Source: a virus (Duplodnaviria; Caudoviricetes). From it: a stretch of 52,934 nucleotides of DNA. This document shows, piece by piece, positions 51,535 through 51,839 of the stretch; position 1 is the first letter of the stretch, and each line of letters begins with the position of its first letter. The notes under the pieces are model-generated. The model was not told the DNA's origin, searched no databases, and saw only the letters and a list, made by a program, of their open reading frames with translations. Location of the stretch: positions 1 to 52,934 of the IMG/VR virus record IMGVR_UViG_3300011126_000153, one strand, 5' to 3'. The translations under genes and the position numbers were made by a program.

Positions 51535-51583
51535 GGCTTTTTAATTTTTTAATAGAAGTTTTTCTTAAAAGTTATAAAAGCCT
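51534..51583 (+). terminator. Imperfect hairpin after 50062
   Basis: AGGCTTTT...AAAAGCCT. Confidence 0.45.
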
Positions 51584-51627
51584 GATACAATATATAAATA
51601 AGTAGAAAACGCTTAGTTTACTACAAA

Positions 51628-51800
51628 TTAGTTCTACGAAACTTAAAATCGTATTTTTTATCACTTTCCACAAAGTGATTGTCAGACGAGACATTAAAGC
51701 GTCCTAAATAGGTCAGAATATATCCCTTTAAATATCACCCCAGTTTTGCGAAACTAACAAAAAAATCGCATTCGGTTTCAAGGTCTATCCTCAAAAGATT
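51628..51800 (+). ncRNA. Structured leader of the capsid operon with three copies of hairpin A and two of hairpin B
   Basis: A: 51635-51653, 51685-51703, 51747-51770; B: 51660-51679, 51784-51798. Confidence 0.6.
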
Positions 51801-51839
51801 TTATTTTTATTTTAATAATTAAATCATAAGAGGTTTTTT

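Follow-up and report, generated by a model that had tools for sequence, protein, structure and literature searches.

The locus examined here raises the question of why a tailed phage should keep, ahead of its capsid genes, a 305-nucleotide (nt) gap filled with small, similar hairpins. The gap lies between an open reading frame (ORF) for a tail-fibre-like protein of 490 amino acids (aa; 50062-51534) and a 256-aa ORF (51840-52610) in IMGVR_UViG_3300011126_000153 (Duplodnaviria; Caudoviricetes), a complete virus record, 52,934 bases long and flanked by direct terminal repeats, the whole of which is referred to below as the window. As the terminal repeat is 21 nt long, the genome comes to 52,913 bp. 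A preliminary description, made from the letters alone, had read 51583-51839 as a leader in which three variants of a hairpin A are interleaved with variants of a second element B, with selection acting on the structure. The strings it quoted are all present: TGATACAAT at 51583-51591, the hairpin-A variants TACGA-AACTTAAAA-TCGTA (51635-51653), GACG-AGACATTAAAG-CGTC (51685-51703) and TGCGA-AACTAACAAAAAAA-TCGCA (51747-51770), and the element-B variants ATCACTTT-CCAC-AAAGTGAT (51660-51679) and TCTATCCTCAAAAGA (51784-51798); the exchanges between the A variants, T-A to G-C and A-T to G-C, had also been read correctly. What did not hold is the division into independent, interleaved A and B elements, as hairpin A is a pseudoknot and A and B form one module. 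The second helix of that pseudoknot and a weak third element B (51718-51735) had been overlooked. Judged from sequence comparison, the module would belong to a structured phage mRNA leader, and its structure is well supported.

Each module is about 60 nt long and combines an H-type pseudoknot, a GGUU or GGUC, and a small hairpin B. Both in the window and in relatives, the first loop bases of hairpin A pair with those immediately 5' of it, and it is this second helix that makes hairpin A an H-type pseudoknot. The first stem (S1) has 4 bp and reads AGUU/AACU, AAGU/ACUU or AGGU/ACCU, or, in a second type of module, UGUC/GACA or AGUC/GACU; the second stem (S2), of 4-5 bp, is the stem originally described as hairpin A. 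Loop 1 is 1-2 nt long, mainly UC (A in the second type), no bases intervene between the 5' arm of S2 and the 3' arm of S1, and loop 3 is A-rich and 4-10 nt long. The GGUU or GGUC comes 3-9 nt after the pseudoknot and hairpin B a few bases further on, with a stem of 4-8 bp, pyrimidine-rich in its 5' arm and purine-rich in its 3' arm, and a loop of 6-11 nt that includes CC and has A's at its end. The UC of loop 1, the GGU and the CC of loop B are invariant and unpaired. That the same arrangement recurs in the window at 5622-5680 and 8014-8072, with 24 identical bases at 8017-8040, indicates that hairpin A and element B belong together as the halves of a single module. Two further pairings were considered and set aside: by eye, the CC of the hairpin B loop is neither consistently complementary to GGUU or the Shine-Dalgarno sequence nor covaries with them, and GGUU as an alternative partner for the 3' arm of S1 stays unchanged where S1 changes.

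As far as sequence can tell, the case that these modules are more than chance rests on comparison and not on the window alone. Folding energy was dropped as support for structure, the leader and modules being indistinguishable from shuffles in this respect: the whole leader has a z of -0.84, with 34 of 200 shuffles folding as well, and the five single modules have z values of -0.5, -0.6, -2.4, +0.1 and -0.2. Within the window, a short core motif shows no enrichment, with 10 matches where 7.55 are expected, and the element B strings have no repeats elsewhere. Among relatives, an alignment of the 35 type-1 pseudoknots with a 2-nt loop 1, in which gaps are confined to loop 3, has 97.5% of its 315 cells paired. 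Its covariation score is 0.414, against 0.169 +/- 0.018 in shuffles, none of 500 of which reached it, and a control with the partners slid scored no more than 0.089. Four of the nine pairs change on both sides, two in each helix: GC 28 / AU 7 and UA 22 / GC 13 in S1, and AU 20 / GC 8 / GU 7 and, innermost, AU 24 / CG 7 / UA 4 in S2. This set holds 12 G-U cells, 8 pyrimidine-pyrimidine cells and no A-C cells, and this tolerance of G-U combined with the lack of A-C fits folding of the sense strand.

The 13 type-2 pseudoknots behave similarly, with 94.2% of cells paired, four of eight pairs changing on both sides and one of 500 shuffles reaching the observed score; three of them have C opposite A at the outermost S1 pair. 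Even at 98% protein identity, relative L003 has GACA/TGTC as S2 of its module 2 where the window has GACG/CGTC, a double compensatory change. A rival 6-bp hairpin with a 3-nt loop, which shares the outer four pairs, was rejected for the type-1 set, its fifth pair being broken in 12 of 35 sequences, in which that base covaries with its S2 partner; this hairpin may form as an alternative fold. Hairpins B of at least 5 bp with a CC loop were found in 84% of 76 distinct regions compared with 12.6% (maximum 26%) of shuffles, and 47 distinct B hairpins use 13 different arm pairs, all by our own parse, in which by construction only pairing hairpins are counted. Alignments made with MAFFT were out of structural register for whole pseudoknots with mixed loop-1 lengths (A1), for whole modules (A2) and for hairpin B (A6), and the 51% pairing of hairpin B on the model-fitted alignment A3 is taken as misalignment. 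In the sequences compared, both pseudoknot stems and hairpin B thereby appear as helices that vary while keeping their pairing. The proposal that the structure is under selection is borne out by this stem covariation in relatives, which is far stronger than three copies within the window could show.

A covariance search, named in the preliminary description as a check, was made with a model built from 28 modules. It gave four matches in the window at E <= 6.4e-6, all on the + strand, intergenic and ahead of structural genes, and the stems covary in the type-1 and type-2 sets alike; the next match (E 0.0077), within an ORF of the opposite strand, was taken as noise. The ORFs downstream of modules, in the window and in relatives, fall into two families. 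One is the family of the 256-aa protein (26 loci), mostly preceded by three modules, and the other (24 loci, one module each) comprises proteins of 129-1082 aa that share about 65 N-terminal aa. The suggestion that copy number is highest at the capsid unit is borne out by this pattern, which is conserved: genes of the 256-aa family mostly have three modules ahead of them, the remaining module-bearing genes one. Using the 256-aa protein as query, 21 viral loci were retrieved, and all 11 distinct relatives with a readable leader (44-98% protein identity) have three pseudoknot modules. Their order is type 1, type 2, type 1 in nine of the 11, the others being L015 (1-1-2) and L017 (1-2-2). In the three longest related records (G001-G003) the model found 3+1 or 3+2 matches on the coding strand, the singles lying further along the same strand.

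A single degenerate 22-letter consensus matched 43 viral stretches on 40 contigs (a count of the listed names), and the 46 loci fetched with this consensus gave 81 model matches at E <= 0.01. In 596 Gb of prokaryote genomes the same consensus matched 11 stretches, two of which carry a full module, on small metagenome-assembled genome (MAG) contigs of 2.6 and 2.5 kb, with one more a marginal partial case. The idea of a host motif was rejected, as nine of the 11 prokaryote matches have no full module, a number close to what chance would give by a rough estimate. The two MAG contigs, filed under Bacillota (L049) and Leptolyngbyaceae (L057), have their full module before a 131- or 171-aa gene of the second family; they are probably phage fragments binned with bacterial genomes, and so give no guide to the host. 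There were no model matches in cultured phages HTVC023P and DSL-LC04 or in contig G006, and no modules in five high-G+C loci (L019-L023) whose proteins are 29-30% identical. The module is, on the sequences compared, common to a clade of uncultured relatives.

The distance from the module to the gene is constrained. In the 256-aa family, 63-85 nt separate the end of the pseudoknot from the start codon in 25 of 26 genes; in the second family the gap is 58-83 nt for 21 of 24 genes, and the four exceptions lie at 137-288 nt. Of 57 distinct contexts, 45 have an extended -10-like match no more than 140 nt upstream, and sites of the form TGnTAnnnT, equivalent to TGATACAAT, occur upstream of the relatives' module arrays. 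In 27 of these contexts, by our reading, the TG of this match lies 17-40 nt ahead of the first pseudoknot, so that the transcription start would fall a few bases before the module. In the remaining contexts, the module comes directly after a conserved ORF end. Going by their sequence, these phage promoters look like plain host-type promoters.

In the window, the array at 51583-51839 (+ strand) would represent a 5' leader of about 240 nt for a two-gene capsid unit. It opens with the extended -10 promoter-like site TGATACAAT at 51583-51591, from which transcription is predicted to start near 51598, and a small hairpin at the leader's 5' end (51602-51624, GUAG.AAAC / GUUU.CUAC in the centroid structure) folds at -6.5 kcal/mol (z -3.34, 1 of 200 shuffles as good). 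Module 1 has a type-1 pseudoknot at 51630-51653 (S1 51630-51633/51640-51643, S2 51635-51639/51649-51653), and the covariance model matched it at 51629-51682 with 36.7 bits (E 6.4e-6). Its hairpin B, the variant ATCACTTT-CCAC-AAAGTGAT at 51660-51679, has 8 bp, is 100% complementary and has no GGUU ahead; the same GGUU-less 8-bp variant, with wobble or compensatory changes, stands in the same place in L003, L010 and L018. The type-2 pseudoknot of module 2 (51680-51703; S1 TGTC/GACA, S2 GACG/CGTC) is followed at 51711-51735 by GGTC (51711-51714) and, by our own parse, the weak hairpin B (ATAT/ATAT, 51718-51735, CCC in the loop), and the model score for this module is weak (51685-51736, 9 bits, E 5). 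Module 3 has a type-1 pseudoknot with a long A-rich loop of 10 nt (51742-51770) and then, at 51774-51802, GGTT (51774-51777) and a hairpin B (51780-51786/51796-51802, loop AUCCUCAAA) that contains TCTATCCTCAAAAGA; it was matched at 51741-51803 with 48.2 bits (E 2.3e-8). Modules 1 and 3 are 79% identical over 19 nt, and module 2 is of another type. An A+U-rich spacer with the Shine-Dalgarno sequence GAGG (51830-51833) fills 51803-51839, directly before the ATG at 51840, and no terminator-like site was found in 51535-51839.

The two single modules lie on the + strand, ahead of second-family genes. Upstream of ORF 5706-7064, at 5602-5680, come an extended -10-like TGATATACT (5602-5610), a pseudoknot (5623-5646), GGTT (5652-5655) and hairpin B (5661-5675), matched by the model at 5622-5680 with 62.9 bits (E 1.7e-11). 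Upstream of ORF 8101-8493 the module at 8014-8072, matched with 63 bits (E 1.7e-11), has its pseudoknot at 8014-8038, GGTT at 8042-8045 and hairpin B at 8050-8069; the first two bases of this pseudoknot are the last two of the upstream ORF's stop codon (8013-8015), and no promoter-like site was found directly upstream. The products of ORFs 5706-7064 and 8101-8493 share their N-terminal ~65 aa (39% identity, E 1e-9) and both have weak tail-fibre PHROG rows. Sequence sharing of this kind across the family points to one virion-attachment domain common to these proteins, with C-termini that can be exchanged. Contig L097 carries a near-identical leader array twice, at 1806-2090 before a 256-aa-family gene and at 10161-10331 before a fibre-like gene of the second family, and it looks as if the leader there has moved as a cassette.

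The genes of the unit itself are consistent with the earlier claim that the leader precedes capsid genes, which is supported by the structural matches of the 256-aa protein and the synteny of the ORF that follows. The 256-aa protein (51840-52610, + strand) has 356 relatives at E <= 1e-5, and among the best 120 of these all named ones are "hypothetical" and none has a Pfam domain; the protein itself matched no Pfam or PHROG family. Its AlphaFold (AF2) model is of good quality by score (pLDDT 83.2, pTM 0.86). A Foldseek search with this model gave nothing at E <= 0.001, and in a structural search against representatives the top eight rows were auxiliary chains from phage capsid reconstructions (HFTV1, FCWL1, a TW1 capsid-stabilising protein entry, BB1, Sf11 and Pam3) at Z 7.0-5.2, values that lie below Z ~8, a level common for unrelated models. 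Lower rows of the same search included the phi29 head-fibre base and a lambda capsid chain. On the strength of the model, the product is probably a capsid decoration or cement protein. Starting 27 nt after it, a 301-aa ORF on the + strand runs from 52638 to 52934 and continues at 1-630, the reading passing through the 21-nt terminal repeat into window positions 22-630. It can be called major-capsid-like from a weak match to the Mu gpT major-head family (E 0.0098, below the Pfam cut-off) and from synteny, as Pelagibacter phage HTVC023P and phage DSL-LC04 both have annotated capsid genes in this position, behind the same GroES-like gene. Given the decoration-like reading of the first gene and the capsid synteny of the second, "capsid operon" is a fair name for the unit.

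The gene order of 48104-52934 is shared with these two phages (L103 and L104) and runs GroES-like, ~340-aa ORF, ~150-aa ORF, decoration-like and capsid; relative to them, a 490-aa tail-fibre-like ORF and the long leader are additions in the window, placed ahead of the decoration-like gene. The unit is bounded upstream by an AT-rich imperfect hairpin (51535-51582, + strand, 23-nt arms, 74% complementary), directly 3' of the stop codon of the 490-aa ORF, which gave -14.8 kcal/mol and a z of -3.15 when folded as 51530-51590. Directly after the capsid ORF, a 14-bp hairpin (641-678, + strand) folds at -20.5 kcal/mol (z -6.77, none of 200 shuffles as good) and is likely to be the terminator or the 3' end or stabiliser of the two-gene unit; a consensus scan missed it, probably because its loop is 9 nt.

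As to function, the reading we favour, to which we give about an even chance, is that of a cis-acting leader element that would act on mRNA stability or on translation initiation. A post-transcriptional role in cis is preferred because the structure belongs to the sense strand, promoter-like sites lie upstream, the distance to the start codon is constrained, and an A+U-rich spacer and a strong Shine-Dalgarno sequence follow. Transcription would start just upstream of the modules, leaving them at or near the 5' end of the mRNA, and a module about 60-85 nt before the start codon could then make the message more stable and determine how fast translation initiates. It would do so when bound by a protein, be it the ribosome (30S/S1) or a phage protein, binding of this kind being most likely because the helices by themselves are too weak to hold. 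The effect of three copies might be stronger than that of one. That copy number would scale dose is a conjecture, one that fits the conserved three-versus-one pattern and the many copies in which virions contain capsid and decoration proteins.

The nearest known parallel to such an element is the leader of gene 32 in phages T4 and T2. According to the passages on that gene in PMC3014915, a pseudoknot 67 nt upstream of the T4 gene 32 start codon nucleates protein binding along an A+U-rich stretch, and the gene 32 message is the most stable T4 mRNA. The likeness lies in a compact two-stem pseudoknot near the 5' end of the leader, from which an A+U-rich stretch leads to the ribosome binding site, and the spacing is of the same kind, with 58-85 nt from the end of the pseudoknot to the start codon in 46 of 50 genes of the two families here, again with an A+U-rich spacer. 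The T4 element, however, is single, stands ahead of the gene for its own single-stranded DNA-binding protein and is bound by that protein, whereas the modules here precede virion genes, occur in arrays of three, and carry hairpin B and GGUU in addition; the phage's own SSB-family ORF (28852-29283) has no module. The gene 32 leader would thus be a likeness of working and not a matter of membership, and according to PMC10690425, Rfam has no model of the T4 element.

Several observations weigh against this reading, or against the strength with which the structure can be put forward. Among the sequencing runs listed for the region there is no RNA run. Four of the five modules fold no better than shuffles, which points to weak helices, and the best nested fold of the pseudoknot alone reaches -2.7 kcal/mol. 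The paired percentages quoted for the pseudoknots are inflated because the finder used for alignments A5 and A7 demanded most pairs, and related sequences can beat shuffles without any structure. The promoter tally was made without a shuffle control, and in three second-family genes the module is 242-288 nt away. Neither the module at 8014, which has no promoter upstream, nor the position of type 2 is explained by a plain stabiliser or enhancer; type 2 is the middle module in 10 of 12 arrays, while it comes third in L015 and takes both the second and the third place in L017. Lastly, a Pfam scan of 30 non-structural ORFs recognised no RNA-binding regulator; it also recognised no polymerase, sigma factor or antiterminator, and many of these ORFs had no match at all.

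Other explanations seem less probable. In a riboregulatory system for virion genes of a kind not described so far, a phage protein may bind the pseudoknot-GGUU-hairpin unit and so couple capsid and fibre synthesis to assembly or to the stage of infection, an operator role that we think unlikely; the binder could then be a virion protein not yet assembled, for instance the decoration protein, and the three non-identical modules, usually type 1, type 2, type 1, could act cooperatively. Decoration proteins in solved relatives are trimeric. About as improbable is antitermination or attenuation in the style of HK022 put or lambda nut, by which the nascent module would let polymerase read through the virion operon. 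The put and nut sites are short cis-acting structured RNAs downstream of promoters, in few copies per genome, and the modules too are two-part structures of ~60 nt, commonly directly downstream of promoter-like sites, with singles recurring further along the same strand and strong, possibly terminating hairpins in the structural region, such as that at 641-678. Yet put and nut are stem-loops without a pseudoknot and are not known to keep a fixed distance to a start codon or to form tandem arrays; the tight start-codon distance seen here is not required for such a role, the module at 8014 lies between genes with no promoter upstream, and no N-, Q- or LoaP-like protein was recognised by Pfam among the 30 ORFs. 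The leader also contains no terminator-like site of its own, and, unlike an intrinsic terminator or attenuator with its G+C-rich stem and U-run, hairpin B has A+U-rich stems and is followed by U-runs that are not conserved. A signal for RNA processing, whether a site for a host or phage ribonuclease or a small self-cleaving ribozyme, by which the segments of a polycistronic virion transcript would gain defined, structured 5' ends, would agree with modules between genes (that at 8014 overlaps a stop codon), with arrays packed head to tail and with several positions that are invariant yet unpaired. We regard it as still less probable, given that no Rfam ribozyme family matched even at E <= 10 and that the helices are too short for an RNase III substrate.

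The H-type topology, A-rich third loop and invariant loop nucleotides also recall ligand-sensing aptamers, and a tandem riboswitch could tie virion protein synthesis to a host metabolite or signal. Small pseudoknot aptamers of similar form are known in preQ1-I and SAM-II (~25-35 nt), and tandem arrangements occur among riboswitches, but this topology is common to many unrelated pseudoknots. Here no Rfam riboswitch family matched at E <= 10, the family-model match and the queuosine or transport genes that go with preQ1-I are both lacking, and the downstream genes are structural and not metabolic. No expression platform is evident, hairpin B neither covering the Shine-Dalgarno sequence nor resembling a terminator, and with no second loop between the stems any pocket would be very small, all of which leaves a riboswitch with little probability. 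An element acting as DNA, be it a phage-specific promoter, the binding site of a late regulator or a cassette that moves by recombination along with the 5' ends of fibre genes, is slightly harder still to credit. The promoter-like fixed distance to the start codon, the single modules always ahead of genes with the conserved N-terminal ~65 aa, and the near-identical, cassette-like arrays before two different genes in L097 would suit it. In L005, on the other hand, the S2 arms are TACGT/ACGTA, GGCG/CGTC and ACGC/GCGT, differing yet complementary within one genome, and a sequence-reading protein is disfavoured because copies differ in sequence while keeping complementarity. The type-1 set has G-U cells but no A-C cell, which points to one strand read as RNA, and with canonical promoter-like sites upstream the modules would be transcribed. 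Least credible of all are functionless, neutral leftovers of local duplication; the unremarkable folding energies would agree with these, but the comparative data speak strongly against them, as 11 of 11 leaders keep their three modules across protein identities of 44-98%, the stems covary and the placement is constrained. Tandem pseudoknot RNA repeats upstream of a protein gene are also a feature of ToxI of type III toxin-antitoxin systems. The ToxI repeats, however, are near-identical and precede an endoribonuclease toxin, whereas the modules here are diverged, belong to two types in a largely fixed order, occur also as singles and have a decoration-like protein downstream.

Whether the motif had been noticed before was considered through Rfam and the literature. 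Rfam 15, searched over 51535-51860 at E <= 10, gave one spurious snoRNA row (E 2.8), upstream of the modules, and full-text literature searches gave no description of the motif, the candidate lists of PMC10690425 lying outside this comparison. That survey, from 2023, predicted 10,006 candidate structured RNAs from viral contigs; five of them, by its account, typically precede a major capsid protein family, and 12 precede gene 32. It resembles the present work in seeking conserved structured viral RNAs upstream of particular genes, and the motif may have been predicted within it earlier, though apparently with neither a description nor a test.

The remainder of the genome carries genes for the large terminase (42870-44492) and the portal protein (45016-47664), along with RecT and YqaJ recombination proteins, an SSB-family protein, helix-turn-helix (HTH) regulators and leucine-rich repeat (LRR) proteins. 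A tRNA at 24353-24424 was the sole match in the window to Rfam 15 (4227 models, gathering scores), and a search of the phage collection at the DNA level gave no match. Two ORFs on the - strand (18978-19898 and 30848-31519) are composed of 84-nt repeats (repeat family D1), with a strong LRR_6 match in the first (E 1.3e-45) and a weak one in the second (E 1.5e-5); a phage of this size would not usually carry such LRR-type ORFs. The small ORFs that follow one another on the - strand at 32800-38000 have conserved 5' ends and upstream sequence in common (D3, D6, D10, D15 and D17), and from these repeats they appear to be a paralogous early-gene family. The early region also holds diverged direct repeats at 28274-28367 / 28518-28611 (94 nt, 76%; D13) and at 39817-39951 / 39992-40126 (135 nt, 73%; D9). 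The 239-aa ORF that precedes the terminase gene (42135-42854) has weak matches to outer-membrane beta-barrels (E 2.5e-4, below the Pfam cut-off).

Very few cases are known of structured leaders that act post-transcriptionally on phage late genes, and PMC3014915, in its account of gene 32, describes that pseudoknot as possibly the only viral one used for translational autoregulation. The modules described here offer a compact covarying motif with dozens of natural variants and a natural copy-number series of one against three, clearly linked to capsid decoration and major capsid genes and to a family of fibre-like genes. Being small, the module is suited to structural, reporter and pull-down work, and may serve as a clade marker in metagenomes. 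If the modules were indeed operators, they would constitute an RNA-level homeostat for the structural proteins of tailed double-stranded DNA phages, in use throughout a clade of uncultured aquatic phages. More generally, the module provides a handle on how abundant uncultured phages, distantly syntenic with HTVC023P, set the amounts of their virion proteins.

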